Below, piece after piece: positions 5,332 to 32,829 of a DNA stretch of 64,000 bases. The DNA is from an uncultured Desulfospira sp. GTDB taxonomy: Bacteria > Desulfobacterota > Desulfobacteria > Desulfobacterales > Desulfobacteraceae. The DNA lies in assembly GCA_963663165.1 (NCBI GenBank), contig OY760175.1, positions 1,856,001 to 1,920,000 of the forward strand, in the 5' to 3' direction. Below the pieces are notes generated by a model, which had not been told where the DNA came from, did no database searches, and was given only the letters and a program-made list of their open reading frames with translations. Made by a program: the position numbers and the translations under genes. Every line of letters begins with the position of its first letter. Within the stretch, counting starts at the first letter, position 1.

Positions 5332-7201
5332 ATCGGGTAGGTCGGGGGCTTTACAGCCCCTTTCCCCCCTCAGAACCGTACGTGACAGTTTCCCGTCATA
5401 CGGCTCAAGCATTTCTAAGGCTGAGCCTTGCGGGGCCGCCCGGCTGTTTTCTCTTGCCAATGCTGAAATTTACAGTTATTTCATTACATATTTTCTCGGC
5501 CGCTGTGACAGGGATCACCTTTGGTTTCACCCGTCTTGCCCAGTGGATTTTATCCATGAAGGCCTGCACATTTTTCCTGGATGGTTTAATGAGCAGTTTG
5601 CCGTCATACTTACGAACGTTTTGGCCCAGAAAATCGAATCCCCGGTCAATTCGGGTAATCAGGGTCTTTTCTTCAGACAGGGATAGATCCCGTTCCGAGA
5701 GAAATCTGATTATGGCCGGTTTGACCTTGTCTTCAAGAAGTTCCCGGGTTGCACCGGTAATAATGAAATCATCAGCATACCGAATGACGTTGATTTTGGA
5801 ACTGATGTCCTTACCGTTGCGTCTGTCCCTGACAGGGGCAACAGATCCGGCAGTCCCTTCAATGCCGTCCAGAACCATGTTGGCCAGTGTGGGAGAGGCA
5901 ATGCCGCCTTGCGGCGTTCCCCGGAGGGATATGGTCGATCATCCAGTCATGGATAGTTTCATCAAATCAGGCTTTAATATCCGCTTCAAGTATCCAGACC
6001 GGCGAGGTTTTCTTGGCCAGTGTATTAAAGCATTGGGATATGGCGTCCGCACATCGCCTGTATGACCTGAATCCGTATGAATTGTGGTCGGCCAGTGTTT
6101 CTGCTATCGGCTCCACTGCCAGTTTATACAATGCCTGAACAGCCCTGTCGATCATTGTGGGAATACTTAACGAACGTTTCTTGCCGTTCTTTTTGGGAAT
6201 ATAGATCCGCCTGAGCGGTGATGGCTGGTATCCTCTCCGTTTGAGGTTGCCTGCTGCCTGGAATTTCTGCCTGGCGGTTTTCCAGGTGACGTTGTCGACA
6301 CCCGGAGTGCGTTTCCCTTTATTGGAGGTCACGCGTTTTACAGCTAACAGCTTTGCCTGGTAAGAGTGGGTCAGAAGCCACTGGAGGGCCTTGGCCCGTC
6401 CGTATCTTCCTTCTTTCACAGCCTTTGCGATACGCATTTGCAGTCTTTTAACAGCTTCATAAATGGCTTTCCAATGAATGGACTTCCAATTCCTGAAACT
6501 GCCGATGGGCGCACCAGCTGTTGCCGTCATTTGCCTTCCCATCTTCAAAGATTCTCCAGACTATCTCGCAAAGAAACACCTGCCCGGGTGTGCCTGTAGC
6601 CACACCCGCCGGACGTCAGCTCCCTTTCGGGCCGGATAATGTTGAAGGTCAGTAGATCCATCTCAATCCGTATCCACCTCATTACAAGACGGCATTCGCT
6701 TCTTCCTGCATCTTATTCCCGCACCCCCATCAGTGTGCCTTGCGGTTTCACCTGCCGAATGTTCCCGGCGAAGATACGGGGTTTCCACGTTCCGCATTAT
6801 TGCCAATTAGTGGATGACTTAGGCCTGCCCTCTGCACCGGCGGCGCAACATCTCCGTGCAGGCAGTTGAGAAACCTGCATCCTGACCGCTCACCTTTTGG
6901 TCCAAGCTTACCAGCCTCTTTAGCTTGTTCTCCCTGACGGTACTTACGGAACATTCAACTACTTTGACCATATCATCCAAACCCTTGCCCTCACCCGGAT
7001 TGAGGCTTCCAGGAGGGTATCTGCCTCACGGCTTCCACCCCTTCCACAGTTGCGGAATTCGGTACGTTGTCGGTTGGGCTTTACACCGTTGCCGGATGCA
7101 CCGACCACCGCATGCCATCTAGGGTACCGGCAGGAGAATGCCGGGTTTGGTCAGGACCGACTGGCCCGCCAAACAGCCAATAATGCGACTTCGTGTCGCA
7201 C
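5332..7201 (-). mobile_element. Group II intron I1 (chloroplast-like class) in attC R', RT pseudogene
   Basis: 5' GTGCGAC; domain V GAGCCGTATGACGGGAAACTGTCACGTACGGTTC; 3' ACCCGAT; 5' exon GTTGTCG. Confidence 0.92.
5405..6530 (-). pseudogene. ltrA: Group II intron RT/maturase, disrupted (stop plus ~71-bp deletion versus I5)
   Basis: RVT_N-type N-terminus, YADD; split into ORFs 5967-6548 and 5405-5878. Confidence 0.88.
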
Positions 7202-7334
7202 CGACAACGGGGAGCTGAGGGGCCAGGCTTTTAAACCCCAAAAAACTCCGATAAAAAGTTTAATTTTCCTGAACCAGGGACTCCCGAAAAGGCCGCGCCA
7301 GTAAGCCTGGTCCCTCTCCGGCGTTTTGTTGGCC
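7202..7334 (-). other. attC site 1 (last in array)
   Basis: R'' GGCCAAC ... CAGCTCCCC-GTTGTCG R'; arms CCAGGCTT/AAGCCTGG. Confidence 0.88.
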
Positions 7335-7720
7335 TAATTTTTGGAATAGACCGCTTTTAAATTTTCAATCATCGGGTAATGTTTGATATTTAGCGTTTTA
7401 AGCTGAGCATTTTTTGAATGACACGTTGCAGCAATGATGGCATCAGCCAATCCTACGCCATGAGATTTGCCGAAATCACGTTTATATAGTCCACCAATCT
7501 TAGCAATTTCAGAGGTAATTGGAATGACGTCAAAAAGGGAAACAAAATTATTCAAAATCGTTAATTCTTGTTTCCCCCTTACCCCTGCATAAAGTTCAGC
7601 GATCACTATCGTGGATAATATTATTTGAGATGCATTGTCATTTATAAAATCAACAGCTTGCTGATAGCCTCGTAAAAAATCAATAAGAACATCAGTATCA
7701 GGAAGGAATAATTGCGCCAT
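7334..7720 (-). CDS. vapC: VapC/PIN toxin (cassette)
   Basis: DTDVLIDFLRG, ELYAG, LADAIIAAT, TLNIKHY PIN motifs. Confidence 0.92.
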   Translation of the reverse strand: MAQLFLPDTDVLIDFLRGYQQAVDFINDNASQIILSTIVIAELYAGVRGKQELTILNNFVSLFDVIPITSEIAKIGGLYKRDFGKSHGVGLADAIIAATCHSKNAQLKTLNIKHYPMIENLKAVYSKN

Positions 7721-7722
7721 TT

Positions 7723-7956: not shown

Positions 7957-8014
7957 TGTGAATCTCCCTTTTTGATGTATACATTATAGTTGTACATCAC
8001 GAGGGTTTTGTCAA

Positions 8015-8077
8015 GGCCAACGGTAAGCTCACCGGACCGGCGTTTTATGCCGGGTCCGGTGAAGCGTTTGGTTATAC
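8015..8077 (-). other. attC site 2 (63 bp)
   Basis: R'' GTATAAC, R' GTTGGCC (matches R'' of site 1); ACCGGACC/GGTCCGGT arms. Confidence 0.9.
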
Positions 8078-8082
8078 CAATT

Positions 8083-8937: not shown

Positions 8938-9472
8938 CTCGCGGTAGGAACGCCGGTTACCCGACGCCCCCCGCACAGACCCGGACGTGCGGTTTTCCCG
9001 CATCCGGTTCCTCGGTTATACTCGCTTTCGTGTAAGACATCCGTTTATGTAAACGCTCGATGTCGCCTGTTAACCACTCGCATCCTTGGTTTGGCAATAC
9101 CCAAAAGAGCCACTGCTCTGGTAAAGACTTCCCAGGTGAAGCTTTTCCGCTTCCCACCTCGACGATTCAACCACTTGAATGCACACTCTTCGGCCCAGCT
9201 GTAAAAATGCCATAATGCCGACAGGTTACCTGGTACATTATAATAGTTGTAATAGCCGCGCAACCGTCTATTCAACCCTTTTATAAAGGTGATTCCTTTT
9301 AAATGACGGTTATCCTTTATCCATTCCTTGATTCGCCGGCAGGCTCCTTGCAATTTCTTTGGCGCAGTCCGTTGTTTAACTTTCACGGTACCGGTTCTGT
9401 CTTTTTCCCAGAAGAGTTCAAAGCCTAAAAAGCTTATCCGTACTTTCATACCGGGATGGAAACGATTAAACC
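8938..9472 (-). mobile_element. 3' remnant of class-E-like group II intron (E1), truncated by IS66
   Basis: Domain V/VI GAACCGGATGCGGGAAAACCGCACGTCCGG...CCTACCGCGAG; maturase C-terminus FLGF...LNRRLRGYYNYY...WLNRRG. Confidence 0.85.
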
Positions 9473-9551
9473 GTGTCCCTTCGGTAAGCCTGCATGAATT
9501 AAGTTTTCGCAGCTGATATAACGGTCCCATCAACATTTTAAGGAAGGACCC

Positions 9552-10360: not shown

Positions 10361-11257
10361 ATGACAGATGACATCGTACTTACATATAGAGGCAGGACGG
10401 CAACCCGTGATGATATTGCCTTCATCAACCGGTTAATAAAGGATAACCCCCAAGCCAGCCGTTTGGCATTGTCAAAAATGCTGTGCACGGAATGGAATTG
10501 GGTTCAGCCCAACGGTAATCTTCGTGACATGATTGCCAGAGGATACATGCTGGCACTTCACAGGCAGGGGCATATCACCCTTCCAGCCAGAAAGCAGACT
10601 CCCAATAATCCATTTTTGAACCGAAAAAAACCGGCAAAAATACAGATAGATCAAACCCGGGTGACGGCCGGTCTTAATGAGCTCACACCCCTTGATATTG
10701 AACTGGTTAAAAATACCCCCAATGAGGCATTGTTCAATAGCCTGATCGAGCACCATCATTATCTGGGATATTGCCATCCAGTTGGAGAGCAGCTCAAGTA
10801 CATGGTTTTTTATCAAAAAAGGCCTGTGGCATGTTTTTCATGGTCATCGGCACCACTGCATATTGGTGCCAGGGACCGGTACATCGGATGGGAGAAAAAA
10901 CACAGGGATCACAATCTTTGTTACATTGCATATAACAGCCGCTTTTTGATTTTACCTTGGTTCCGGGTGCCTCACCTGGCCTCCTGTCTTTTGGGTTACA
11001 TGGCCAGAAACCTGTCAAAAGACTGGGAGCGTATCTATTGCCATCCTGTTTATTACCTTGAGACATTCGTCGATACCGAATTATTTTCAGGAACCTGTTA
11101 CAAGGCCTCGAACTGGCAATATCTTGGAGAGACAACCGGGCGAGGCAAGCATGAACGCCGGCATATCAAGACCAGATCAATCAAAGCGGTCTGGGGATAT
11201 CCCTTGGTGAAAAATTTTAGAACCCTCATGACAAAGCTGCCCGATGAAATCATTTAG
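10361..11257 (+). CDS. DUF4338 (DruA-like) protein
   Basis: HHYLGY, RDRYIGW, NSRFLILPW, LETFVD, GTCYKASNW. Confidence 0.88.
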   Translation: MTDDIVLTYRGRTATRDDIAFINRLIKDNPQASRLALSKMLCTEWNWVQPNGNLRDMIARGYMLALHRQGHITLPARKQTPNNPFLNRKKPAKIQIDQTRVTAGLNELTPLDIELVKNTPNEALFNSLIEHHHYLGYCHPVGEQLKYMVFYQKRPVACFSWSSAPLHIGARDRYIGWEKKHRDHNLCYIAYNSRFLILPWFRVPHLASCLLGYMARNLSKDWERIYCHPVYYLETFVDTELFSGTCYKASNWQYLGETTGRGKHERRHIKTRSIKAVWGYPLVKNFRTLMTKLPDEII

Positions 11258-12959: not shown

Positions 12960-13090
12960 TCCGAACGGGGAGCTGATGGGGCAGGCTTTTGAACCCCAAA
13001 ACTCTCGATAAAAAGTTGAATTTTCCTGAACCAGGGACTCCCGAAAAGGCCGCGCAGTAAGCCTGGTCCCTCTCCACCGTTTTGTTCGGC
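12960..13090 (-). other. attC site 3
   Basis: R'' GCCGAAC, R' GTTCGGA; downstream cassette truncated by IS66. Confidence 0.88.
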
Positions 13091-15527: not shown

Positions 15528-15960
15528 ATCTGTAATATATCAACCTTCACTTTATTTGTCATGGTCTATTTCTTTAGAGATCGGGTAGCCGGGGGTAGTT
15601 GTCTACCCCAGGCCCCCTCAGAACCGTACGTGACAGTTTCCCGTCATACGGCTCAAGCATTTCTAAGGCTAAGCCTGGCGGGGCCGCCCGGTTGTTTAAG
15701 CAATAATGAAATTTACAGTTATTCCATAGCATGCTTCTTTGAGCATCCGCCAGGGAAGTACAGTTCTTTTTTCCCTGTTCAAAAAACCAGTGCTGACGCA
15801 TGAAAATTTATAGTCAATGATATCAATGACGCAGCTCGATATCCAAAATTATTTTGTCGCAAAATTTAAATAGACAAAATTTCGGCCTTTTGATAATGTA
15901 GCATAGGGTACGAATGAGCGCCCCCCCAATCGAGACACTACATTTGAAGAGGAGGATGTC

Positions 15961-16836
15961 GTGATTGTCCAATGTGGCCGGAAAATTAAAGACGAAGAGC
16001 TTATACAGATTTGCGAGACAGTAGAGACCTTTTCGAATTTGAGTCAGACTGAACTGGCTCATACAATATGCGAACATTTGGGCTGGTATACCGCTTCTGG
16101 TAGGAACAAGGTGGATGCCTGCCGGAAATTGCTTCTGCGACTGGAGTCCCAAGGTCTCATACGGTTGCCTGAAAAAGAGAAACTCGGTCCCATAAAGGGC
16201 TCTCAACAGAAACTGCCGGTAGCGGACGACAGGACCCAGCCCCAAGATAAGGTAGCGGGCACGCTTTCGGATATCGGGCCGATCGTTGTCAGGGTCGCAC
16301 AAGACACGGAAGAACGCTCACTGGTTAATGAATACCTGCACCGTTACCATTATCTTGGCTACAAGCGGCCGTTCGGATGTCATCTGCGTTATTTGATACA
16401 AGCTCAAGAGCGCATATTGGGATGTATGCTGTTCTCAGGGGCGGCCAAGGCGCTGACCCCGAGGGATCGATGGATCGGCTGGAGCACCAACGAACGCTTA
16501 AGAAACTTGGGATTTGTTGTAAACAATGGACGCTTCCTGATTTTTCCGTGGGTCAAGGTCCGGTATCTGGCAAGTCACGTATTGGGTAAAATTGTCAGAG
16601 ATCTGGTGCAAGACTGGGAGCGGAGCTGGGGGTATCGGCCGGCTTTGCTGGAGACCTTTGTCGACCCACAACACTTCGATGGGACGTGCTATCGGGCGGC
16701 CAATTTTAGACACCTTGGCATGACCAGCGGAAAGGGGCTTGTCCGGCAGGGTAGAAGTTACAGGACCAGTCCCAAAAAAATCTTCGTTTATCCGCTGGTG
16801 AATAATTTCCGTCAGGTTTTGAGGCAGATCGGATGA
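15961..16836 (+). CDS. DUF4338 (DruA-like) protein
   Basis: YHYLGY, RDRWIGW, NNGRFLIFPW, LETFVDP, GTCYRAANF. Confidence 0.88.
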   Translation: MIVQCGRKIKDEELIQICETVETFSNLSQTELAHTICEHLGWYTASGRNKVDACRKLLLRLESQGLIRLPEKEKLGPIKGSQQKLPVADDRTQPQDKVAGTLSDIGPIVVRVAQDTEERSLVNEYLHRYHYLGYKRPFGCHLRYLIQAQERILGCMLFSGAAKALTPRDRWIGWSTNERLRNLGFVVNNGRFLIFPWVKVRYLASHVLGKIVRDLVQDWERSWGYRPALLETFVDPQHFDGTCYRAANFRHLGMTSGKGLVRQGRSYRTSPKKIFVYPLVNNFRQVLRQIG

Positions 16837-18461
16837 GCAAGCCTATCCGACGCCCCAATCGTGAGGAGATAAAGGCCAAAAGAAAGCAGTTTAAAAAGGA
16901 GCAGAGAAAATTACGTCGGGATGAAGAGGCCAGGGGATTTCAGCCGCCCTCTCATGGCACAATTTCTAACTGCAAATGCCGATATGAAAGTGTAGAACAG
17001 GAGGGGCGCATCCGCAATGAGGCCGTGGCTGAGAAAATGAGTATTTTTCGCGCTAAGCTGCCCATTCTGCTCAAACGTATGGCCAAGATTGAAGACCCTC
17101 GAAACCCTAAGAAGATAAAACACCAAATATCCACACTCATGATCTATGGGATACTGACCTTTGTGTTTCAGATGGCTTCTTGCCGTGAGGCCAACAAAGA
17201 AATGAGCCGGCCGATGTTCTGGAAGAATCTTCAATATTTTTTCCCGGAGCTTGAAACGCTTCCCCATCATGATACGTTAAAACGCCTATTGTCTAAGATT
17301 GATATCAATCAAATCAAGAAGCTTCATCTCGATCTGGTCAGAGATCTGATCCGGAAAAAGAAATTTCGACGGTACCTGGTCAATGGCTGTTATCCGATTG
17401 CCATAGATGGTACAGGTAAATTCAAACGCGACTGGCTTTGGGATGAAGAGTGCCTGGAACGTAACATCAAGAAAGAGGATGGCACCAGGAAACAGTATCA
17501 TGTCTATGTTCTGGAAGCTAATCTTGCGTTTTCCGATGGCATGAGCATTCCGCTGATAAGCGAAATCCTGAGCTACACCGAAGGAGATACCGCTAATGAT
17601 AAGCAGGACTGCGAACTCAAGGCGTTTTACCGGTTAGCCTCTTGCCTGAAGGCGGCATTTCCCGCCCTAAAAATTATGGTGCTTTTGGATGGGCTTTATG
17701 CCAAGGGCCCCGTGGCAGAAATTTGCCGAACAAACAAATGGCAGTTCATGATTGTACTGAAAGATGACGCTCTACCCAGCGTAATGAATGAATTTGAAAC
17801 GCTTGCCGCACTCGATACAGAAAACTGCCACCAACACACATGGGGCAATAGGAAACAGGTTTTTCGGTGGATCAACGCCATTGACTACCGGTTTGGTCCG
17901 AACGGCAAGAAAAGTCAAATCCTGCACGTTGTTGAATGCAAAGAGAGCTGGAAAGAGGTTAGCCGGGAAAGCGGTCAACCGGAAAAGAAAAATAGTCGTC
18001 ATGTGTGGTTGTCCAGCGAACCTTTGGACAGATTTAATCTTCACGAACGATGCAACATAGCCGCCCGTTCCCGTTGGTGTATTGAAACCGGTATTCTCGT
18101 TGAGAAACATCATGGATATGAGTACGAGCACTGTTTTTCGTATGATTGGATGCTAAGATTCAAAAAATGTAACGCGGATACGCCAAATCAGCTACAAAAT
18201 AATATAACGGGAAGATATCCCGCCGCTTTACCCCGCCAATAAAATATATAAACCTTACCTCGCTTACCCCGCAGTTATCCCGCCGCGAATTTTTTCGAAA
18301 AAAGCTTTGCCAATCTATTTGGAAGAAGTCAATACTTCCTTGATAAAAAAGGCTCGAAGCTGCAACTTCGAGCCTTCAATGTAGACATCCGAGTAGGTTA
18401 CGGAAGCCACACCACCGTTTTTATCTAACCACGGCTTCCGTAATTTAGCAAGAGCGGAAGC

Positions 18462-18851: not shown

Positions 18852-18860
18852 AACATCTTA

Positions 18861-19265: not shown

Positions 19266-19267
19266 AG

Positions 19268-19822
19268 ATGAAACGGCTGCTTCAACTGGAGACCCTTATT
19301 GCCCGTAATCAGGAGAGTTTCTATAAGATCGGTCAGGCGTTAAAAGAAATCCGTGACAGCCGCCTGTACAAACTGGCCCTGTTTGAGACATTTGAAGCAT
19401 ATACCAGGGAACGGTGGGATATGGGCAAGTCCCATGCATACCGCCTGATCAAATCTTATGAAGTGATCTATAATTTGTCCCCAATTGGGGACAAAACACC
19501 TGCCAATGAATCCCAGGTCCGGCCTCTTGCTCAATTGGACCCCCTGGACCAGCGCAACACCTGGAAGGCAATCATAGACAACGGTATTGAGTTAACCGCA
19601 CGGAACATCAAAAAATTTGTAGAGGCCCAAAAAATACCCCCGGAGAACAAACCGGATTTGGCGGAACGGATTTCGGCTGAATACATGGCAGCCGTACATG
19701 CAATGATTGAACAGGTGCGGGTGGCCCAGCATGATCATTGGCAGCAAACGTCCCGGCAGGCTGCATTGTTGTGGCACAGGGTGATCCGCGAAAAAATTTT
19801 ATCAAAAGGGGCAAGACAATGA
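19268..19822 (+). CDS. Putative DNA-binding protein, DUF3102-like (T1)
   Basis: IGQALKEIRDSRLY...TFEAY...AYRLI...NESQVRPL. Confidence 0.7.
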   Translation: MKRLLQLETLIARNQESFYKIGQALKEIRDSRLYKLALFETFEAYTRERWDMGKSHAYRLIKSYEVIYNLSPIGDKTPANESQVRPLAQLDPLDQRNTWKAIIDNGIELTARNIKKFVEAQKIPPENKPDLAERISAEYMAAVHAMIEQVRVAQHDHWQQTSRQAALLWHRVIREKILSKGARQ

Positions 19823-21486
19823 AGAACCTGAGCCTTGATGACCGTTTTTATTTGCTGCTCCATAAAAAAATCATGAATAAAACCGGATCAGCCAAAAGAA
19901 GGTCCAAAAAATATTACAAAGACCAGTACAGGAAAACCGGCATTATCCCGACGCCCCTTCTACTGGTTGAAAAAGGGATTATGGACGGCCGCAAATGCAG
20001 CGGCCGGCCCCGGTCCATAGATGAACAAACCAAAAGGCGGTTTATCGAAATGGTCAAGGCCTCCTGTGACCCGTCATCCCAGGGGTTTATTTTTATTACC
20101 CGAAAAGCCAGAACCATTAAAAATTACCACTATTGGCTTGAAAGAGAATTGGGAAAAACCATCAGCCTTCCGGCACTCAGGCGATGTGCCCAAAGGGAAG
20201 GCCTTAAATTTTACCTGGAAAAAGAAGATTTTGAAGAAAATGCCCCGGTGAAAAACGCATTCAAGCCTGTTCCGGTGTTTGGCCTGATACAGGTAGACGG
20301 TTGCAACTTTCGATATTTAAAAATCAAAAATGAGGCTGGCCACTGGCAAAAACCCCAAGTCATTGAAACGTTTGATACCGGTTCCCGGTACATGTTTGAA
20401 CTTGATGCCTATTTCGATGAAAGCAGCTTAAGCTCAGTGGATTTGTTTAACCGGTTTTTGCTTTCCACCCCATTTCCCCAGAAGAAAGTCCGGTTCAGGC
20501 CGGATAACGCCACAGGATTTGTAAATCTCAAAAGAGTCATCAACGCCTTGAATATAAAACATTCCGTTCCCGGAGGATTTTATCTGGCGCCGGATTTTTC
20601 AAGGGTAAGTGCCCCCAGGGACAAGGCCCATCTTGAGTCCTCCCATCGCAGTCTTCATAATTTTGAAATCCGAATCATCAAGGCGTTTGAAGACAGGATT
20701 GTAAAGACCGTTCCAGGGGTTATCTTCAATAATAAGAAAAAAGAAAAAATCACTGTGACACTCCTTGATATTACACTCCGGGATTTAAGACACAGCCCCC
20801 TGATAAAAGAATACCGCCACGAACATAACCACACCAAACATTATTTTAGCGAAAATGGAAAGATCAGTGCATGGGTTCCGGCACAAAAGCTGGAAGAATT
20901 TTTATCAAGGCAAGCCGATATCCTTACCTTTTCACCGGATGAGGTGCAGGAATATATGAAGTATGGCTACAGGAAAATAAAAGCCACTGTATCTAACAAA
21001 AGAACCATTCGCCATGACAACCGGATCTATTGTGTAACCAGTGGTACAGACCGGTTCAGCAGGCATAAAAGTACACCGGTGCAAATATCAGTATATAAGG
21101 GCAAGCTGTTTATTTTTGAACGGGGGGAAGACGGCATACTATTGGGCGAAGCCCTTGCCACAAAGCCGTTTGACAAACCACCTGACCCAAAATCTGTACC
21201 AGTGGCCCCGGATGAACTCGACATGATGATCATTTTTCTGGAAAAGCACAACATGGCCGTCGACCGGCGAGTCTTAATTGAAGCTTATCATAGCGGCCTC
21301 ACTCTGGCCCGGGCTCAACAAGTGCTTCATCATAATCAATCCAGGTACAAGAATTATATGAAAAAGATGCGGCAACCTGAAACACAGAAAAAGCAGGCGG
21401 TATTCAATGCCTTTATGCTTGACTGCCGGAAATTGATCAATACAAACCATGTGGCCACGTATGCATCCTGCGGAGATTTAACATGA
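19819..21486 (+). CDS. Mu/Tn552-like DDE transposase (T1)
   Basis: GRPR, IQVDG, RPDNATGF, KAHLESSH catalytic-like motifs. Confidence 0.8.
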   Translation: MKNLSLDDRFYLLLHKKIMNKTGSAKRRSKKYYKDQYRKTGIIPTPLLLVEKGIMDGRKCSGRPRSIDEQTKRRFIEMVKASCDPSSQGFIFITRKARTIKNYHYWLERELGKTISLPALRRCAQREGLKFYLEKEDFEENAPVKNAFKPVPVFGLIQVDGCNFRYLKIKNEAGHWQKPQVIETFDTGSRYMFELDAYFDESSLSSVDLFNRFLLSTPFPQKKVRFRPDNATGFVNLKRVINALNIKHSVPGGFYLAPDFSRVSAPRDKAHLESSHRSLHNFEIRIIKAFEDRIVKTVPGVIFNNKKKEKITVTLLDITLRDLRHSPLIKEYRHEHNHTKHYFSENGKISAWVPAQKLEEFLSRQADILTFSPDEVQEYMKYGYRKIKATVSNKRTIRHDNRIYCVTSGTDRFSRHKSTPVQISVYKGKLFIFERGEDGILLGEALATKPFDKPPDPKSVPVAPDELDMMIIFLEKHNMAVDRRVLIEAYHSGLTLARAQQVLHHNQSRYKNYMKKMRQPETQKKQAVFNAFMLDCRKLINTNHVATYASCGDLT

Positions 21487-22145
21487 AGGCAGATTTTATC
21501 AGTGACAAACGAAGGGTATCATACCTGAGCGCCACTTATAGCCGGATCTACCGGGGCCGGAGCGTACTCATTGAGGGAGATTTTGGAGCGGGAAAAACCA
21601 GGTTTTTAAAACTGCTTCGTCCCAAAAAACTTCATGCCGTATGGGTAGAGTCCCTGTTCAACATACACGAAACCCTGGCATCCATACTCAAAGAATTGAA
21701 CTATGACACCACAGCCACATATCGCAGAACTCCCCAGTACCTGAAAATGATCTGCAACCTGTCCAACTGCTTTATTATTATTGATGAGGCCAATGATCTG
21801 GATACCAGGGTCTGGCCATATCTTAAGCGGATCATTGATGCCGGTGTTCCTATTGTTTTTGCAGGGCTTCCAAAGGTCAGGACCTATTTGATTCGCAATC
21901 ACCCTGATATCCTCAGCCGGTTGAAAACCCTGATTTTATATCCCATAGAGGTTGAGGGCTTTATCGAACAATATAAAGATATCCAGCAGGAAGCCGTTGA
22001 GCAAATTTATATGGCGGTCAAAGGCGACATGCGTAAATTTAAAGAAATCTGTACTGACTGCCGGGACAAGGCAAAGGAATTGAACCACCAATTTGTTGAC
22101 ATTAATCTTGCCCTGGAGTTTATATCTGACCTTCCTCCCCAGTAA
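21483..22145 (+). CDS. AAA+ ATPase, transposition helper (T1)
   Basis: Walker A GDFGAGKT, Walker B IIIDEA, SRL arginine finger. Confidence 0.88.
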   Translation: MKADFISDKRRVSYLSATYSRIYRGRSVLIEGDFGAGKTRFLKLLRPKKLHAVWVESLFNIHETLASILKELNYDTTATYRRTPQYLKMICNLSNCFIIIDEANDLDTRVWPYLKRIIDAGVPIVFAGLPKVRTYLIRNHPDILSRLKTLILYPIEVEGFIEQYKDIQQEAVEQIYMAVKGDMRKFKEICTDCRDKAKELNHQFVDINLALEFISDLPPQ

Positions 22146-23647
22146 TCCCTGAAAAGTAGATCCGTAAAAACAGGCCACTTCTGATTTAACCGGAAGATGG
22201 CCTGTTTATATTTTGACCTTAATTGATTAACGCAATTTTTCGCCTGGATATACCTGTGAAAATCAGGGAACCACAGATTGTTTTTGAATCTTTTTTGAAC
22301 CGTTACATTAATTTGCAACTTTCAATATTTTTGACTGCCAACCTAACCTACTAAATTTATATGAAAAACCATTTCTTTTTTGAAATAATGAACGAAAAAA
22401 AATCCGTTACATTATTTGAATGTGAGCAATTGGAACGTCATGAAAGGGTATCATGCCTTGATGCGCCTGGGCCATATGTTTAACGTTTTGGCCAGATACT
22501 CGCAGCGGCTTGCCAGGATTATTGAAGATACCGGCGCACGGGGCCTGATTCGTTTAGTCCGGGATACCATGTCCGGCCCGTGGCTGGATTACATGTGGCT
22601 GGAAGATCGTCTGTCCACTCCCTTTCAACTCCGATTAGTATGACGGCAACGACGGACGGGTAATCGAAAACACTCTCCCAAGCAGAGAGGTGGGAACGCT
22701 ATGTTCGGACCGAAGGACCGTCTTTCGTTTCGGCCATAGTCAGTGTCTGAAGGACTGCCTTTTTGAATTAAAAAAGGCTGGATCTCCCCCCAAAGGGAGT
22801 GGTTAGATCGACTAAAGCCAACCTTTTTTTATTCATGCGTCAGCACTGTCAAAAAACATACGTCCTTTGAAAATGCCTCTGGATGTGCATGCCGTGTGCT
22901 TCTCTAACAACCTTTGCGATACTCATCTACAGTCTTTTAACAGTATAAACTGCTGATGGGCGCACCAGCTATTGCCGTCATTTGCTTTCCCATCCTCAAA
23001 GATTCTCCAGACTCTCTCGCAAAGAAACACCTGCCCGGGTGTGCCTGTAGCCACACCCGCCGGACGTCAGCTCCCTTTCGGGCCGGGTGATGTTGGGATG
23101 TTCTCCTCAACCCGTATCCACCTTATTACAAGATTGGCCTTCGCTTTTTCCTGCATCTTACTCCCGCACCCCCATCTGTGTGCCTTACGGTTTCACCTGC
23201 CGAATGTCCCCGGCGAGGATACGGGGTTTCCACGTTCCACATTATTGCCAATTAATGGATGACTTAGGCCTGCCCACTGCACCGGCGGCGCAACATCTCC
23301 GTGCAGGCAGTTGAGAAACCTGCATCCTGACCGCTAACCTTTTGGTCCAAGCTTATCAGCCTCTTTAGCTTGTTCTCCCTGACGACGCTTGAAGAACATT
23401 CAATTAATTTGACCATATCATCCAAACCCTTGCCCTCACCCGGAATGAGGCTTCCAGGAGGGTATCCGCCTCACGGCTTCCACCCCTTCCGCAATTGCGG
23501 AATTCGGTACGTTGTCGGTTGGGCTTCACACCGTTGCCGGATGCACCGGGAACCGCATGCCACCTAGGGTACCGGCAGGAGAATGCCCGGGTTTGGTCAG
23601 GACCGACAGGCCCGCCAAACAGCCAATAATGCGACCTCGTGTCGCAC

Positions 23648-23774
23648 CCGAACGGGGAGCTCAGCCGACCGGGGCATACAGCCGAGCAGATTGTCGAAGC
23701 CAAGTTTTTTCGAAAACCAAGGACTTTCGAAAAGCCGCTATCCCCCCCGGGTCGGCTGCAGCGTTTTGTTCTCT
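23648..23774 (-). other. attC site 4
   Basis: R'' AGAGAAC; CAGCCGACC/GGTCGGCTG arms; R' GTTCGG^intron. Confidence 0.88.
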
Positions 23775-24393: not shown

Positions 24394-24843
24394 AGTTAAA
24401 ACTATAACGCCATGTGTTAAATGTCAAGCGTGTGTTTTTAAGAAATCGGGTAGCCGGGGGTAGTTATCTACCCCAGGCCCCCTCAGAACCGTACGTGACA
24501 GTTTCCCGTCATACGGCTCAAGCATTTCTAAGGCTAAGCCTTGCGGGGCCGCCCGGTTGTTTGAGCAATAATGAAATTTACAGTCATTTCATAGCATGCG
24601 TCCTTGGGCATCGGCCAGGAAGTACTGTTTTTTTCTATAACCGCAAATGACAGTTGGATTTTTTCAACCAACTGATTTTTAATTCAATTAATACAACTTG
24701 TTTCAATTTGCAAAGTATATGTTTTAGTCGTTGAATCGAAAAACTCTAAGATTCTGGGCGAAATGGATTATTTTTCCTGTTATTGCTTCGTAGTATATGA
24801 TATTATTTGGCACAAATATCATATACTACGAAGAGAGGTTGTC

Positions 24844-25509
24844 ATGCCTATTATCGACGTTCAAAAAATTGAATCGGCCAGATCAACGCTTAAAAAACAA
24901 AAAATTTTTACCCTCAAAAAGCTTGTTTCAATTCTGGATTGTTCCTCCAGAACTGCCCAAACAAAACTTAAACAGTGGAAGACCTACACAAGTTACAATC
25001 AAAACGGGAAGTATTATACTTTGCCTGAAATCCCTCAATTTGACGTTTATGGTATATGGCAATTTAAAAATGCCGCGTTCTCTAAGTATGGTAATCTAAA
25101 AAAAACCATTATCCATTTAGTGAACTCCTCATCTGAAGGGCTTACCGGCAGACAACTTGGTGAACTTCTTGGGTTATCACCACAATCCTTTGTGCATCAT
25201 TTCCGTAGTTGTCCGGGTATCTGTCGAGAAAAGCACGCTGGTGTCTATGTCTACTTCTCTGACAACATTTCAATATTTAAAAATCAAGTAAAACAAAGGA
25301 GTTCCCTTGTCCTCCGTCAAGCGGCTATTTCCATTTCTGACCAGGAAGCAGTCATGATTCTGGTTGCTATTATCAGGCATCATGGCATATCCGCAGAAGA
25401 CATTTTGGGCTTGCCGGAGATCAAAAAGAGCAAACTAAAGCCGGCTAATATCCAAGGATTTATGGAGTCTCATGAGTTGTTAAAAAAAATTCCGGATTCC
25501 AAGCATTAA
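24844..25509 (+). CDS. IS ORF1, HTH-like protein
   Basis: RBS GAGAGG; SYNQNGKYYTL; winged-HTH-like segments. Confidence 0.75.
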   Translation: MPIIDVQKIESARSTLKKQKIFTLKKLVSILDCSSRTAQTKLKQWKTYTSYNQNGKYYTLPEIPQFDVYGIWQFKNAAFSKYGNLKKTIIHLVNSSSEGLTGRQLGELLGLSPQSFVHHFRSCPGICREKHAGVYVYFSDNISIFKNQVKQRSSLVLRQAAISISDQEAVMILVAIIRHHGISAEDILGLPEIKKSKLKPANIQGFMESHELLKKIPDSKH

Positions 25510-25559
25510 AACTGCTCAAAAGCTTTATCTCCAAGCTGACTGGGTCCGTCCAAACTAGT

Positions 25560-27314
25560 GTGCTATTCTCAGCAAAGCCGACTTTGCATTTTTACCCGGA
25601 AATTTTAAAATGCCCTGATTGTAATTCTACACTCCATGTTCAGAAAACCGATACGAAGACCAGGGTCACCATGGACATCGGTGCCTATTTTGCCAAGGAA
25701 ACGGTATTGTATTGCCCCCACGGTCACGGAACGTTCAGGTCCGAACAGCTTCGAAACCTTGTACCCAGGGGCGGCACTTTCGGGTTTGATGTCATTGTGG
25801 AGGTGGGGTTTGCACTTTTTGTCCGTTGTCTCAGCAATCAGGAGGTCATGGCTGAATTGGCGATCAAGAATGTATTCATCTCTGAACGGGAGATCAGCTT
25901 TCTGGGCCGTAAGTTTATCATTTATCTTGCCCTGGCTCACCGACAGAGCCGGCCGGCTCTGCGAAAGTTCTTCACAAGCAGGGGAGGATATATCCTTCAT
26001 GTGGATGGAACTTGTGAAGATGATAGCCCCAATCTATTTTGCGGCCTTGACGGACTCTCAGAACTGGTCCTTGATACGGTAAAAATTTCTTCAGAGAAAA
26101 AAGATGAGCTCATCCCATTTTTCCGTAGCATCAAAGAGCAGTATGGTGAACCAAGGGCACTCGTACACGATATGGGTAAAGGGATTGTCAGTGCGGTGGA
26201 GGAAGTTTTCCCAGGGACACCCGATTTTATATGTCATTTTCATTTCCTGCGTGACATTGGCAAAGACCTGCTAGCTGATGAATATAGTTTTTTGCAGAAA
26301 CGGTTAAAGAAACTCAAGGTTCGACCTGCATTGAGGAGGCAGGCCAAGTATCTTGAGAAAAAAATTGATCCGGTCGGCAAGGATATTGATGAAATTATTG
26401 AGAGCCTTCAAAGTGGGAATTGGCAGGCAACTGATTTCGATCATATCCCCACGATTATGGCATATGCTTTAATCCATTGGATATTTGACTATCCAAATCA
26501 ATCCAACGGATATGGTTTCCCTTTTGACCGTCCATACCTTGATTTTTATCGACGTCTTCAAGATGTTCTCCGGTTGCTGGAACAAATCATGACCGTGAAC
26601 CTCAGTGAGGCAGCAAATTTAAACAGAGCCTTTTCCCAATTATATAAAGTAGTCATAAAAGTCGTAGAAGATAAGCGTCTTAATGATCTTGCCAAAAACA
26701 TGGAATCAAAGGCAGCCGTATTTGACAAGCTGCGTTGTGCTATGCGAATTGCCCTTCCTGATGGCAAAAATGGCATTAATGATAATGGCGATTCCATGAA
26801 CATGAAAAGTATTGAAGAAAAAGTGACTGAATTCAGGAACTGGCTCCTTGAGAATAAACACAGACAAAAAACCTATGCTAACATGGTGGCACAGATTGAC
26901 AAATACTGGGAAAAGCTCTTTGCCGACCCGATACCAGTCGTCACATCGGACGGAATTTTTACGGTCCAACCACAGAGGACGAATAACCTTCTGGAGAGAT
27001 TTTTCCGGGATGAAAAACGACGAGGTCGGAAAAAAACCGGCATGGGATCGCTGAACAAAATGCTAAAAGCGGTCCTTGCCGACACGCCGCTGGTGCAAAA
27101 TTTAAAAAACGACAAGTATATGGAGATTATTCTCAATGGATGTTCCAACCTGGCAGAAAGGTTTTCACAAATTGATGCTGATCTGGTACAAAAAGAGCTG
27201 ACCAAGGCGGCTGAAAACAATTGCAAAATATTCCCGGGGATCAAAAAAATGATAAGGGATACTGAATTAACGGTAAAAATCTCAACGCTGTTTTGTCCAG
27301 CAGATGCAAAATAA
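25560..27314 (+). CDS. MULE-like DDE transposase
   Basis: LHVDGT, LVHDMGKG, CHFH (CxxH), RTNNLLERFF. Confidence 0.85.
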   Translation: MLFSAKPTLHFYPEILKCPDCNSTLHVQKTDTKTRVTMDIGAYFAKETVLYCPHGHGTFRSEQLRNLVPRGGTFGFDVIVEVGFALFVRCLSNQEVMAELAIKNVFISEREISFLGRKFIIYLALAHRQSRPALRKFFTSRGGYILHVDGTCEDDSPNLFCGLDGLSELVLDTVKISSEKKDELIPFFRSIKEQYGEPRALVHDMGKGIVSAVEEVFPGTPDFICHFHFLRDIGKDLLADEYSFLQKRLKKLKVRPALRRQAKYLEKKIDPVGKDIDEIIESLQSGNWQATDFDHIPTIMAYALIHWIFDYPNQSNGYGFPFDRPYLDFYRRLQDVLRLLEQIMTVNLSEAANLNRAFSQLYKVVIKVVEDKRLNDLAKNMESKAAVFDKLRCAMRIALPDGKNGINDNGDSMNMKSIEEKVTEFRNWLLENKHRQKTYANMVAQIDKYWEKLFADPIPVVTSDGIFTVQPQRTNNLLERFFRDEKRRGRKKTGMGSLNKMLKAVLADTPLVQNLKNDKYMEIILNGCSNLAERFSQIDADLVQKELTKAAENNCKIFPGIKKMIRDTELTVKISTLFCPADAK

Positions 27315-28151
27315 ATACCAACCGTCATTTGCGGTCATAGGTTTTTTTTCCTGGTCAAAGACATACGTCCTTTGAAAATGCCTTGGATGTAAATGCCGTA
27401 CGCTCCTTTAACAACCTTTGCGATACGCATCTACAGTCTTTTAGCAGCATAAAGCTGCTGATGGGCGCACCAGCTAATGCCGTCATTTGCTTTCCCATCT
27501 TAAAAGATTCTCTAAACTCTCTCGCAAAGAAACACCTGCCCGGGTGTGTCTGTAGTCACACCCACCGGACGTCAGCTTCCTTTCGGACCGGGTAATATCG
27601 GGGTTTTCTCCTCAACCCGTATCCACCTCATTACGAGATGGCCTTCGCTTTTTTCCTGCATCTTACGCCCGCACCCCCATCAGTGTGCCTTGCGGTTTCA
27701 CCTGCCGAATGTTCCCGGCGAAGATACGGGGTTTCCACGTTCCACATTATTGCCGATTAATGGATGACTTAGGCCTGCCCACTGCACCGGCGGCGCAACA
27801 TCTCCGTGCAGGCAGTTCCGACACCTGCATCCTGACCGCTCACCTTTTGGTCCAAGCTTACCAGCCTCTTTAGCTTGTTCTCCCTGACGACGCTTAAGGA
27901 ACATTCAATTAATTTGACCATATCATCCAAACCCTCGCCCTCACCCGGATTGAGGCTTCCAGGAGGGTATCCGCCTCACGGCTTCCACCCCTTCCGCAAC
28001 TGCGGAATTCGGTACTTTGTCGGTTGGGCTTCACACCGTTGCCGGATGCACCGACCACCGCATGCCACCTAGGGTACCGGCAGGAGAATGCCGGGTTTGG
28101 TCAGGACCGACAGGCCTGCCAAACAGTCAATAATGCGACCTCGTGTCGCAC

Positions 28152-28280
28152 CACAACGGGGAGCTGAGGGGCCAGGCTTTTAAACCCAAAAAGCGCCAAT
28201 AAAAGTTTAAATTTCCCTGAACCAGGCACTCCCAAAAGGCCGCTCTGTAAGCCTGGTAACTCTCCAACGTTTTGTTCAAG
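28152..28280 (-). other. attC site 5
   Basis: R'' CTTGAAC; R' GTTGTG^intron. Confidence 0.88.
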
Positions 28281-29150: not shown

Positions 29151-30142
29151 ATCGGGTAGCCGGGGGTAGTTATCTACCCCAGGCCCCCTCAGAACCGTAC
29201 GTGACAGTTTCCCGTCATACGGCTCAAGCATTTCTAAGGCTAAGCCTTGCGGGGCCGCCCGGTTGTTTGAGCAATAATGAAATTTACAGTCATTTCATAG
29301 CATGCGTCCTTGGGCATCGGCCAGGAAGTACTGTTTTTTTTCCTGGTCAAAGACATACGTCCTTTGAAAATGCCTTGGATGTAAATGCCGTACGCTCCTT
29401 TAACAACCTTTGCGATACGCATCTACAGTCTTTTAGCAGCATAAAGCTGCTGATGGGCGCACCAGCTAATGCCGTCATTTGCTTTCCCATCTTAAAAGAT
29501 TCTCTAAACTCTCTCGCAAAGAAACACCTGCCCGGGTGTGTCTGTAGTCACACCCACCGGACGTCAGCTTCCTTTCGGACCGGGTAATATCGGGGTTTTC
29601 TCCTCAACCCGTATCCACCTCATTACGAGATGGCCTTCGCTTTTTTCCTGCATCTTACGCCCGCACCCCCATCAGTGTGCCTTGCGGTTTCACCTGCCGA
29701 ATGTTCCCGGCGAAGATACGGGGTTTCCACGTTCCACATTATTGCCGATTAATGGATGACTTAGGCCTGCCCACTGCACCGGCGGCGCAACATCTCCGTG
29801 CAGGCAGTTCCGACACCTGCATCCTGACCGCTCACCTTTTGGTCCAAGCTTACCAGCCTCTTTAGCTTGTTCTCCCTGACGACGCTTAAGGAACATTCAA
29901 TTAATTTGACCATATCATCCAAACCCTCGCCCTCACCCGGATTGAGGCTTCCAGGAGGGTATCCGCCTCACGGCTTCCACCCCTTCCGCAACTGCGGAAT
30001 TCGGTACTTTGTCGGTTGGGCTTCACACCGTTGCCGGATGCACCGACCACCGCATGCCACCTGGGTACCGGCAGGAGAATGCCGGGTTTGGTCAGGACCG
30101 ACAGGCCTGCCAAACAGCCAATAATGCGACCTCGTGTCGCAC
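29151..30142 (-). mobile_element. ORF-less group II intron I4 (992 bp, uninterrupted)
   Basis: GTGCGAC...ACCCGAT; only a short RT remnant in domain IV; 5' exon GTTCTCG matches R'' GGAGAAC. Confidence 0.92.
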
Positions 30143-30269
30143 CGAGAACGGGGAGCTGAGCCGACCGGGGCATACAGCCGAGCAGGTTGTCGAAGCCAAG
30201 TTTTTTCGAAAACCAGGAGCTTCCGAAAAGCCGCGAGCCCCCCGGGTCGGCTGCAGCGTTTTTTTGTGC
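30143..30269 (-). other. attC site 7 (R'' mutated to GCACAAA)
   Basis: Same family as site 4; AAC changed to AAA. Confidence 0.83.
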
Positions 30270-30274
30270 CAATA

Positions 30275-30604: not shown

Positions 30605-30848
30605 TTTCTTCCTCCAATCTTTCAATAGCCTTGATCACTTGCTTAACTTGATAGGCTTTTGCTTTTCCTTTACTGTTTTGAATATTTACCCGAGGGTCAC
30701 CTTGCCATGGTGTTTTATATATTCGATGACTGCTACCAGATTGGCGAGCCTTTCCAAAATAATGTTCACAGACCCTGCATAAATCTGTAAATTTTACATT
30801 GGTTGGATTTTTATAAATCTCATTTAATAGCTTTTCAATTTGGCCCAT
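30588..30848 (-). CDS. hicA: HicA toxin
   Basis: GSSHRIYKTPWQGDPRVNIQ...AKAYQVKQ. Confidence 0.9.
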   Translation of the reverse strand: MGQIEKLLNEIYKNPTNVKFTDLCRVCEHYFGKARQSGSSHRIYKTPWQGDPRVNIQNSKGKAKAYQVKQVIKAIERLEEESDTTK

Positions 30849-30895
30849 GTTTATATGATACTAATATTGATACTATTGTCAACGGTGTTTTTAGG

Positions 30896-32829
30896 ATCGG
30901 GTAGGTCGGGGGCTTTACAGCCCCTTTCCCCCCTCAGAACCGTACGTGACAGTTTCCCGTCATACGGCTCAAGCATTTCTAAGGCTGAGCCTTGCGGGGC
31001 CGCCCGGCTGTTTTCTCTTGCCAATGCTGAAATTTACAGTTATTTCATTACATATTTTCTCGGCCGCTGTGACAGGGATCACCTTTGGTTTCACCCGTCT
31101 TGCCCAGTGGATTTTATCCATGAAGGCCTGCACATTTTTCCTGGATGGTTTAATGAGCAGTTTGCCGTCATACTTACGAACGTTTTGGCCCAGAAAATCG
31201 AATCCCCGGTCAATTCGGGTAATCAGGGTCTTTTCTTCAGACAGGGATAGATCCCGTTCCGAGAGAAATCTGATTATGGCCGGTTTGACCTTGTCTTCAA
31301 GAAGTTCCCGGGTTGCACCGGTAATAATGAAATCATCAGCATACCGGATGACGTTGATTTTGGAACTGATGTCCTTACCGTTGCGTCTGTCCCTGACAGG
31401 GGCAACAGATCCGGCAGTCCCTTCAATGCCGTCCAGAACCATGTTGGCCAGTGTGGGAGAGGCAATGCCGCCTTGCGGCGTTCCCCGGCCTGTTGGAAAG
31501 AATTTACCGTCCTCCATAAACCCGGAAGCCAGCCATTTGGTAAGGATCATCTTATCCATAGGGATATGGTCGATCATCCAGTCATGGCTGATTTCATCAA
31601 AGCAGGCTTTAATATCCGCTTCAAGTATCCAGACCGGCGAGGTTTTCTTGGCCAGTGTATTAAAGCATTGGGATATGGCGTCCGCACATCGCCTGTATGA
31701 CCTGAATCCGTATGAATTGTGGTCGGCCAGTGTTTCTGCTATCGGCTCCAATGCCAGTTTATACAATGCCTGAACAGCCCTGTCGATCATTGTGGGAATA
31801 CTTAACGGACGTTTCTTGCCGTTCTTTTTGGGAATATAGATCCGCCTGAGCGGTGATGGCTGGTATCCTCTCCGTTTGAGGTTGCCTGCTGCCTGGAATT
31901 TCTGCCTGGCGGTTTTCCAGGTGACGTTGTCGACACCCGGAGTGCGTTTCCCTTTATTGGAGGTCACGCGTTTTACAGCTAACAGCTTTGCCTGGTAAGA
32001 GTGGGTCAGAAGCCACTGGAGGGCCTTGGCCCGTCCGTATCTTCCTTCTTTCACAGCCTTTGCGATACGCATTTGCAGTCTTTTAACAGCTTCATAAATG
32101 GCTTTCCAATGAATGGACTTCCAATTCCTGAAACTGCCGATGGGCGCACCAGCTGTTGCCGTCATTTGCCTTCCCATCTTCAAAGATTCTCCAGACTCTC
32201 TCGCAAAGAAACACCTGCCCGGGTGTGCCTGTAGCCACACCCGCCGGACGTCAGCTCCCTTTCGGGCCGGATAATGTTGGGATGTTCTCCTCAATCCGTA
32301 TCCACCTCATTACAAGATGGCCTTCGCTTTTTCCTGCATCTTACTCCAGCACCTCCATCAGTGTGCCTTACGGTTTCACCTGCCGAATACTCCCGGCGAA
32401 GATACGGGGTTTCCACGTTCCACACTATTGCCAATTAGTGGATGACTTAGGCCTGCCCTCTGCACCGGCGGCGCAACATCTCCGTGCAGGCAGTTAGGAA
32501 ACCGGCAGCCTGACCGCTCACCTTTTGGTCCAAGCTTACCAGCCTCTTTAGCTTGTTCTCCCTGACGGTACTTACGGAACATTCAACTACTTTGACCATA
32601 TCATCCAAACCCTTGCCCTCACCCGGATTGAGGCTTCCAGGAGGGTATCTGCCTCACGGCTTCCACCCCTTCCGCAGTTGCGGAATTCGGTACGTTGTCG
32701 GTTGGGCTTCACACCGTTGCCGGATGCACCGACCACCGCATGCCACCTAGGGTACCGGCAGGAGAATGCCGGGTTTGGTCAGGACCGACTGGCCCGCCAA
32801 ACAGCCAATAATGCGACTTCGTGTCGCAC
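30896..32829 (-). mobile_element. Group II intron I5 (chloroplast-like class) with RT ORF
   Basis: GTGCGAC/ACCCGAT ends; inserted at GTTGTG^C. Confidence 0.93.
30969..32177 (-). CDS. ltrA: Group II intron reverse transcriptase; X domain apparently truncated, no endonuclease
   Basis: RVT_N-type N-terminus, GTPQGG, RYADD, FDFLG; lacks the usual RGWxNY segment. Confidence 0.88.
   Translation of the reverse strand: MGRQMTATAGAPIGSFRNWKSIHWKAIYEAVKRLQMRIAKAVKEGRYGRAKALQWLLTHSYQAKLLAVKRVTSNKGKRTPGVDNVTWKTARQKFQAAGNLKRRGYQPSPLRRIYIPKKNGKKRPLSIPTMIDRAVQALYKLALEPIAETLADHNSYGFRSYRRCADAISQCFNTLAKKTSPVWILEADIKACFDEISHDWMIDHIPMDKMILTKWLASGFMEDGKFFPTGRGTPQGGIASPTLANMVLDGIEGTAGSVAPVRDRRNGKDISSKINVIRYADDFIITGATRELLEDKVKPAIIRFLSERDLSLSEEKTLITRIDRGFDFLGQNVRKYDGKLLIKPSRKNVQAFMDKIHWARRVKPKVIPVTAAEKICNEITVNFSIGKRKQPGGPARLSLRNA

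Follow-up and report, generated by a model that had tools for sequence, protein, structure and literature searches.

What brings five related group II introns to the same point of five integron attC sites, all in one orientation? The question is raised by a 64,000-nt stretch of the genome of an uncultured Desulfospira sp. (contig OY760175.1, positions 1,856,001 to 1,920,000; hereafter the window), which belongs to one 6.74-Mb contig (C1). We propose that a single chloroplast-like (CL) intron family, with an RNA of the IIB1-like subgroup, retrohomes into the attC top strand through pairing between exon-binding sites (EBS) of the intron and intron-binding sites (IBS) of the exon, a reading to which we assign a probability of roughly 85%.

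The Rfam models returned five matches to RF02012 (domain D1) in the window, at 86-95 bits against a gathering score of 34, and six to RF00029 (D5-D6), all on the minus strand. Five of the RF00029 matches, at 69-72 bits against a gathering score of 40, belong to the five introns. The sixth is weak (41 bits, 8938-9012) and is part of a different group II intron fragment within the array (8938-9536, minus strand), in which D5-D6 lies directly downstream of a 163-aa open reading frame (ORF) with a GIIM domain. The intron 5' ends (GTGCGAC) are found at 32829, 30142, 28151, 23647 and 7201, and the matching 3' ends (...CCCGAT), located by BLAST, at 30896, 29151, 24445, 15580 and 5332; the limits of the span 5332-32829 are the last of these 3' ends and the first of these 5' ends. 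Named A to E in that order, the introns follow the 5' exons ...GAGCTCCCCGTTGTG (A, 5' end 32829), ...CAGCTCCCCGTTCTCG (B, 30142), ...CAGCTCCCCGTTGTG (C, 28151), ...GAGCTCCCCGTTCGG (D, 23647) and ...CAGCTCCCCGTTGTCG (E, 7201), which share the pattern ...AGCTCCCCGTT followed by GTG, CTCG, GTG, CGG and GTCG, respectively. A first-pass annotation of the window had placed five related introns 6-7 nt after the start of the GTT in the attC R' box, and the exons are exactly as it claimed. Introns C and D are interrupted by insertion sequences, the ORFs of which match transposase families. A complete reverse transcriptase (RT) is encoded by none of the five introns, all of which are defective copies. 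The introns and their parts are as follows.

30896-32829, minus strand: intron A, 1934 nt; ribozyme domains complete, RT ORF with an in-frame 124-aa deletion of X/thumb and D.
30969-32177, minus strand: RT ORF of intron A, 402 aa from MGRQM; RVT_N and RVT_1, no GIIM.
32493-32498, minus strand: EBS1 loop CCUAAC of intron A (intron nt 332-337), predicted to pair with GTTNNN of R'.
32558-32562, minus strand: candidate EBS2 of intron A, GGGAG, predicted to pair with CTCCC of the attC L'-R' spacer.
29151-30142, minus strand: intron B, 992 nt, an ORF-less derivative.
24445-28151, minus strand: intron C, ORF-less type, split by an insertion with a Mutator-type transposase ORF (25560-27314, plus strand).
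15580-23647, minus strand: intron D, ORF-less type, split by ~7 kb of insertion sequences (transposase and AAA ORFs, 15961-22145, plus strand).
5332-7201, minus strand: intron E, 1870 nt, X/D-deleted type with the RT frame broken further; 3' of the last attC of the array.

The meaning of this arrangement depends on whether the repeats ahead of the introns are attC sites, and on which of their strands is the top strand. A search with an iterated nhmmer profile gives 16 attC-like repeats for the window, of which five precede an intron, and 55 for the 6.74-Mb genome, of which 13 precede an intron; the genomic sites cluster at 1.86-1.92 Mb (the window), 4.18-4.19 Mb and 5.54-5.61 Mb. The profile was used in place of a motif scan with two mismatches, which gave 1810 matches, mostly spurious. 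All 13 window occurrences of the motif AGCTCCCCGTT are on the minus strand, with 0 on the plus strand. The 16 window repeats, each ~125 nt long, align as NNNAAC-AAAAC-L''...L'-TCCCC-GTT with AAC and GTT invariant, and in this alignment L'', the 5' arm, has 1-3 extra bases compared with L'. The extrahelical bases of an attC belong to its double-prime arm. RNAalifold recovered only 4 pairs from the 16 window sites, the subfamilies of which bulge at different positions. A loose motif, GTTNNN-Y-N2-4-AAAAC, is common to occupied and unoccupied cassette starts (the first 15 nt after the attC GTT; for example, window 42575-42588 and 45272-45286), and the R''-L'' spacer likewise reads AAAAC. The sites in the window are as follows.

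32833-32934, minus strand: attC before intron A; R' GTTGTG, then the intron.
30147-30266, minus strand: attC before intron B; R' GTTCTCG, then the intron.
28155-28277, minus strand: attC before intron C; R' GTTGTG, then the intron.
23651-23771, minus strand: attC before intron D; R' GTTCGG, then the intron.
7206-7331, minus strand: attC before intron E; R' GTTGTCG, then the intron.
12964-13087, minus strand: unoccupied attC; R'' CCGAAC, complementary to the GTTCGG ahead of intron D.
42589-42710, 43200-43321, 43961-44082, 45287-45409 and 53848-53968, minus strand: unoccupied attC, five of ten in the same array.
55558-55682, 56073-56194, 59584-59704, 61800-61919 and 62592-62714, minus strand: unoccupied attC, the other five of the ten.

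The window array has no intI of its own and is a cluster of the CALIN type (attC sites lacking an integron integrase), as would be the case if the repeats were not integron attC sites at all; were they not, or were their strand mis-assigned, the introns would be homing into an unrelated repeat or would be ordinary bottom-strand insertions. The rest of the genome speaks against this. At C1:4194663-4195604 (+) an intI matches TIGR02249 with 456 bits, well above the curated cut-off of 265, beside an array of the same repeats; the first attC (4193282-4193163, minus strand) lies 1.4 kb to its left, in the canonical divergent layout. One cassette is present twice in the genome (1918592-1917800 and 5594610-5593818), with 99.6% identity over a unit that begins at the TT of the R' upstream and includes the attC downstream, and with boundaries exactly at TT...G. 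Because the duplicated unit ends with the downstream attC while the upstream attCs differ, the attC lies 3' of its cassette on the minus strand. Moreover, 27 of 40 neighbour pairs show perfect complementarity between the R'' triplet of a site and the R' of the site before it, against a background of 8.7% and against only 4 of 43 for the R' of the site itself, which shows that these are true cassettes. This complementarity is symmetric between the strands and orients nothing; it was rejected as a proof of strand. The divergent intI, the boundaries of the duplicated cassette and the bulges on the 5' arm establish the minus strand as the top strand of the cassettes, and the introns stand in cassette orientation, as the first-pass annotation had it. 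Between 41 and 63 kb of the window, ORFs of >=120 aa number 19 on the minus strand and 3 on the plus strand. A mistaken repeat or strand is, in our judgment, hardly credible.

A second integron-integrase-like gene, at C1:5540264-5541065 (+), is degenerate (81 and 52 bits, with an internal TAA). It lies at the low-coordinate end of the 5.54-5.61 Mb array and is convergent, not divergent, with the cassettes, a placement that suggests rearrangement.

The class of the element was assessed from its RT and its ribozyme. The 402-aa RT of intron A matches RVT_N (110 bits) and RVT_1 (130 bits) and has no maturase domain. Relative to P0001, a database protein of 526 aa that is 99% identical and carries PF00078 (RVT_1), PF13655 (RVT_N) and PF08388 (GIIM), it has lost 124 residues in frame, between ...FMDKIH and WARRVKP..., so that X/thumb and D are gone. 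In precomputed Pfam annotation no HNH/endonuclease (En) domain is found in P0001, and some relatives in the same table carry PF01844. The closest solved RT is TeI4h of Thermosynechococcus (6me0_C; E 6.2e-129, 434 bits, residues 47-399), to be compared with E 2e-36 for the mitochondrial-like (ML) LtrA and with 3e-28 to 6e-27 (around 1e-27, ~100 bits) for the class C RTs 6ar1, 7uim, 5hhl and 5hhj (GsI-IIC, Eubacterium/Roseburia). Judged from its sequence, the RT is chloroplast-like and not class C; the RVT_N-type N-terminus read from the window alone is borne out, and a grouping with class C did not appear. The D5 of the ribozyme is 34 nt long with an AGC triad (GAGCCGUAUGACGGGAAACUGUCACGUACGGUUC) and is a full match to RF00029. 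IIC introns differ in D5.

Outside the window, the genome holds an intact copy (C1:5575411-5573101, 2311 nt) with an uninterrupted 526-aa RT that has five differences from P0001, a second full-length copy (4191082-4188778) that is frameshifted, and ORF-less members of ~1 kb, at least six in the genome. The genomic family therefore comprises one intact copy, one frameshifted full-length copy, copies with the in-frame X/D deletion, and ORF-less copies. Among the Logan contigs of public sequencing runs, which are short and break at repeats, none joined both exons; joints that skip ~992-996 nt within the intron fit ORF-less forms in related strains.

A 34-nt probe from the intron 5' end occurs at 16 places in the genome, one of them an intron-to-intron junction and the other 15 true 5' junctions. 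Thirteen of the 15 lie directly 3' of an attC on its top strand, 8 at 6 nt from the G and 5 at 7 nt, and no insertion in the opposite orientation is found among these 13 attC-associated copies. Since attC repeats make up ~0.1% of the genome, 13 of 15 junctions at a fixed point of the repeat is far beyond chance. The copies might nevertheless have spread by cassette shuffling within the integrons, or by segmental duplication of attC-intron units, instead of by independent retrohoming. Being within the cassette boundary, the intron would be taken along in any IntI-mediated movement; the arrays at 1.86, 4.18 and 5.5 Mb have duplicated cassettes in common; and mismatches between R'' and R' around introns B and C suggest later rearrangement. 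However, the 3' exons of all 15 junctions are different, and these are therefore separate insertions. The 13 attC junctions also mix different R' triplets, EBS1 differs between copies, two copies occupy non-attC sites, and the same insertion habit recurs in many unrelated genomes. Spread by shuffling or duplication is thus very improbable, and independent retrohoming would account for the copies.

Head-to-tail intron junctions, in which the 3' end of one intron directly abuts the 5' end of the next, are seen at C1:4188780 and at loci L040 and L060; the one at C1:4188780 is without the first three intron bases (...CCCGAT followed by CGACACG). Such tandems would arise if an occupied site, its 5' exon unchanged, received a second insertion.

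The EBS1 hexamer is the variable spot among copies that are 92-100% identical over D1. It reads CCTAAC, CTCAAC, CGGAAC or CCGAAC, always ending in AAC, and sits in the terminal loop of a 5-bp stem (GCAGG...CCTGC) that covaries in relatives. In relatives from public genomes, the loop is the exact complement of the last six exon bases:

L041: EBS1 GCGAAC, 5' exon end GTTCGC.
L042 and L045: EBS1 CTAACG, 5' exon end CGTTAG.
L044 and L072: EBS1 CATAAC, 5' exon end GTTATG.
L052: EBS1 TTAACG, 5' exon end CGTTAA.
L043: EBS1 TAACGG, 5' exon end CCGTTA.
L096: EBS1 TAACGT, 5' exon end ACGTTA.

The intron begins 4, 5 or 6 nt from the G, in step with the position of AAC in the EBS1 loop. EBS2 covaries with the exon as well: GGGAG (nt 268) with CTCCC of the L'-R' spacer in the family studied here, ACGAG with CTTGT in L041, and GGGCA with TGCCT in L073. 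Another candidate for EBS1, GACAACG at intron nt 132, is complementary to CGTTGTC and was rejected as a conserved position of the Rfam D1 model. On the strength of the covariation, pairing of EBS1 and EBS2 with the adjacent exon would constitute target recognition of the IIB type. Ordinary base pairing of the IIB kind, aimed at the R' core and the spacer of the attC, would guide the intron, and recognition of the hairpin need not be invoked.

A different guide would be the folded attC hairpin itself, recognized in the way that class C introns recognize terminator and attC stem-loops, with the GTTNNN pairing only secondary. The insertion point is indeed always just 3' of the hairpin, and one ectopic copy also follows a small hairpin: the ORF-less copy at C1:903578-904577 (+) comes after ctgcgg-ataaa-ccgcag, a T-run and GACGTTCTGG, with a spacer between the hairpin and GTTCTGG. 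Such a role for the top-strand hairpin is speculated on in PMC7923331 (this and the other published accounts cited below are drawn on in part). The EBS1 of that ectopic copy is CCGAAC, which fits GTTC[T]GG with one bulge. Across lineages, moreover, EBS1 and EBS2 covary with the exon and the register shifts among 4, 5 and 6 nt with EBS1, IBS2 lies in the L'-R' spacer, and there is a full IIB-type EBS2, which class C introns lack (PMC7923331). We consider it improbable that the hairpin is the main determinant, although a structural contribution to recognition may exist beside base pairing.

To place the family among its relatives, a tree of 84 RTs (79 loci, P0001-P0003 and, as outgroup, two distant RTs of the window's genome) was built by a quick maximum-likelihood search with LG+G4 and the Shimodaira-Hasegawa-like approximate likelihood ratio test (SH-aLRT). 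The window RT falls in a clade of 17 rows with an SH-aLRT of 99, in which the 5' exon ends in CGTTN1-3 in all 11 rows with a known exon; the other six rows fall at contig ends or tandem junctions or belong to the query group. The same habit recurs in two more clades, one from Acidobacteriota (L096, L099) and one from a Bacteroidales metagenome-assembled genome with five copies (L063-L068). More distant CL introns occupy ordinary sites, an example being one within a conserved gene of Lachnospiraceae. In a set of 40 relatives of the window's genome, a sister species (G001) has all 4 of its junctions after ...GAGCT(C/A)(C/T)CCGTTNNN; attC-like flanks precede single junctions in G004 and G005 and two junctions in G033; and one junction in G013 follows ...TGTTGTG with no evident attC. 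The first-pass annotation had proposed a separate attC-parasitizing lineage, and relatives in other genomes, inserted at the same attC-like point and forming clades of the RT tree, uphold the proposal. That most copies elsewhere might lie in non-attC sites is not what is found within the clade; it is the distant CL introns that occupy ordinary homing sites.

The attC character of the relatives' flanks was examined with a strict geometry (AAC, a 2-8 nt spacer, an enclosed hairpin, a 2-8 nt spacer, GTT). Each flank that passes has an energy reached by <=0.7% of 723 random GTT anchors. L044, L045, L052 and L099 have the R''-L''...L'-R' layout when judged by eye, and L043, L048, L073 and L074 are doubtful as attC contexts. 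Two relaxed hairpin tests for attC-likeness did not separate the relatives' junctions from random GTT anchors. A BLAST comparison of the 5' flank with its own locus detected repeats at 4 of 16 relatives' loci; attC sites need not be alike in sequence.

Several points weigh against retrohoming by EBS/IBS pairing into the attC top strand, or against its breadth. The strict geometry is passed by only 8 of 16 relatives' flanks. The tree comes from a quick search without a reference set of intron classes. Our permutation and tree statistics count near-identical copies as independent and so overstate the case: over 42 intron-exon pairs, EBS1/exon pairing averages 5.17 of 6, against 4.72 (standard deviation 0.09) for permuted exons, with none of 2000 permutations reaching the observed value, and 3 changes on the tree account for the GTT-exon label where shuffled labels require 16, with L069 wrongly counted in the GTT group. 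Pairing is perfect in 13 of the 42 pairs, but in none of the 15 copies in the window's genome, the best of which reach 5 of 6 with their own exon. Imperfect pairing is as expected if insertions spread over many similar but non-identical R' boxes. Five of the 15 junctions lie 7 nt from the G, where a bulged base is required to keep the register; four of them fit once a single exon base is bulged, as in CGGAAC with GTTC[T]CG or CCGAAC with GTTC[T]GG, and the fifth (intron E, CTCAAC with GTTGTCG) retains one mismatch. Two of the 15 junctions are not at an attC, namely the 903578 copy and a divergent copy at 2945506, only 83% identical, which follows CCGTTCTT. The window alone, with all five copies defective, shows no active element. 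Finally, the replication-strand bias expected of endonuclease-less introns is unsupported here: judged from GC skew, the top strand is on the lagging-strand template only at the window array. The cumulative skew is lowest at ~4.0 Mb and highest at ~0.76 Mb, points separated by roughly half the genome, but dnaA is elsewhere, at 2.12 Mb. Around the 5.4-5.7 Mb array there is also a local reversal of the skew.

The window holds other features besides the introns and attC sites. It is rich in insertion sequences, with IS66, DDE_Tnp_1 and Mutator-type transposases. A unit of three ORFs (184, 582 and 220 aa) is present twice, at 19268-22145 (plus strand), inside intron D, and at 38241-41118 (plus strand); its 220-aa ORF has an AAA_22 domain and is IS21-helper-like. 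Two ORFs match the Druantia DruA family, at 15961-16836 (plus strand, E 3e-40) and 10361-11257 (plus strand, E 4e-34), and each overlaps a transposase ORF just downstream (DDE_Tnp_1-associated and IS66, respectively), as if the DruA-like genes here were accessory genes of insertion sequences. Small cassette ORFs on either side of intron A (30700-30850 and 32950-33080, both minus strand) appear toxin-antitoxin-like by eye only, and the ORF downstream of intron A reads, again by eye, like a HicA-type toxin.

In the mechanism that we propose, the EBS1 terminal loop 5'-NNNAAC would pair with the R' core 5'-GTTNNN, and EBS2 (GGGAG here) with the CTCCC spacer between L' and R'. These two pairings would place the intron at 6 nt from the G of the crossover (G^TT), or at 7 nt when one exon base bulges out, that is, within the first bases of the next cassette and in cassette orientation. 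The intact 526-aa RT would supply RVT_N, RT and X/maturase domains, with no endonuclease, and therefore priming most likely relies on host replication. Defective forms such as those in the window would need mobilization in trans by the intact RT, by analogy with the TeI3/TeI4 introns of Thermosynechococcus. From the geometry, in which six of seven R-box pairs are preserved, it is plausible that an attC can still be used once it holds an intron. Transcripts reading through from cassette promoters would include the intron.

The wider distribution lends itself to a broader reading, which we think somewhat better than an even bet: that a widespread CL sublineage, in Thermodesulfobacteriota, Acidobacteriota, Bacteroidota and Chlorobiota, has specialized on integrons, its AAC-bearing EBS1 reading the invariant GTT, and that this is a second and mechanistically independent invention of integron parasitism. 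The invariant AAC in EBS1 would read the R' GTT, the one invariant triplet of every attC, while the neighboring EBS1 bases and EBS2 would drift so as to match the attC family of the host in its variable R' bases and its spacer. Entry on the sense strand, 4-7 nt past the crossover, would allow the intron to be co-transcribed with the cassettes and spliced out, and would leave the hairpin intact. Each time IntI moves a cassette, the intron at its 5' end would also go along as a passenger. If so, a base-pairing retroelement can target sites that share only a structure and three invariant bases, the variable bases being followed by variants of its EBS1. In addition, targetron-type tools for integron arrays could be developed from an intron that is by nature programmed for the attC core.

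The best-known introns of attC sites are the group IIC-attC introns, for example S.ma.I2 of Serratia marcescens. The family described here resembles them in having no endonuclease domain, in preferring attC, in lying just 3' of a hairpin, and in inserting within the GTT-containing box of the strand entered. The group IIC-attC introns have a class C RT and a IIC ribozyme, in contrast to the CL RT and the 34-nt AGC D5 found here. They enter the bottom strand of the attC and so have the orientation opposite to that of the cassettes (PMC3001079). They are described as inserting at R'', with the consensus TTGT/T, and as using an IBS1 of 3-4 bp and a stem-loop, with no EBS2 (PMC7923331). The present family enters the top strand, at the R' box and in cassette orientation, with a putative 6-bp EBS1 and an EBS2. 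The view of two attC-targeting lineages is supported by these differences in class, strand, box and recognition mode, and by many copies in many genomes. Expression of the cassettes should be affected differently as well: antisense IIC-attC introns block transcription from the cassette promoter Pc (PMC3001079), whereas sense introns can be transcribed and spliced with the cassettes. A 2015 review, in the part drawn on, describes attC insertion for class C only and all other lineages as occupying ordinary homing sites (PMC4424553); a CL/IIB lineage that enters attC on the other strand in many genomes, by what appears to be a different recognition principle, contrasts with that account.

In its genomic behavior the family is closer to the TeI3/TeI4 introns of T. 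elongatus. These are of the IIB1-like type, and their closest relative is the CL/IIB1 intron EcI5 (PMC2882425); they descend from one ancestor, have proliferated in the genome, and form families that differ in their EBS sequences, and their ORF-less derivatives, mobilized in trans, outnumber the ORF-bearing copies (Mohr et al. 2010, PMC2882425). Among solved RTs, that of TeI4h is the closest, and the pattern of ORF-bearing and ORF-less copies is shared. The T. elongatus introns, as described there, have an En domain and insert at unrelated sites, whereas the present family has no En domain and lies nearly always in the attC R' box.

The closest precedent is UHB.I2 (Sonbol and Siam 2021, PMC7923331), an endonuclease-less CL1/IIB1 intron present as a single copy on a soda-lake metagenome contig, and our search of the open-access literature found no other IIB/CL intron at attC besides that report. 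The separateness claimed in the first-pass annotation thus holds for the lineage, but one intron of this class after an attC had already been described. By its published description, UHB.I2 is like the present family in being CL1-class, without an endonuclease, directly after an attC and in cassette orientation; two class E fragments are reported in the same study. Its unusual 5' end, UUGCG, matches the TTGCGAC intron starts of L063-L068, L130 and L139. In the sections of that account used here, the homologues of UHB.I2 show no conservation of flanking exons, a structural role is only speculated on, and neither EBS1/R'-core pairing nor a lineage is described; both are supported for the present family.

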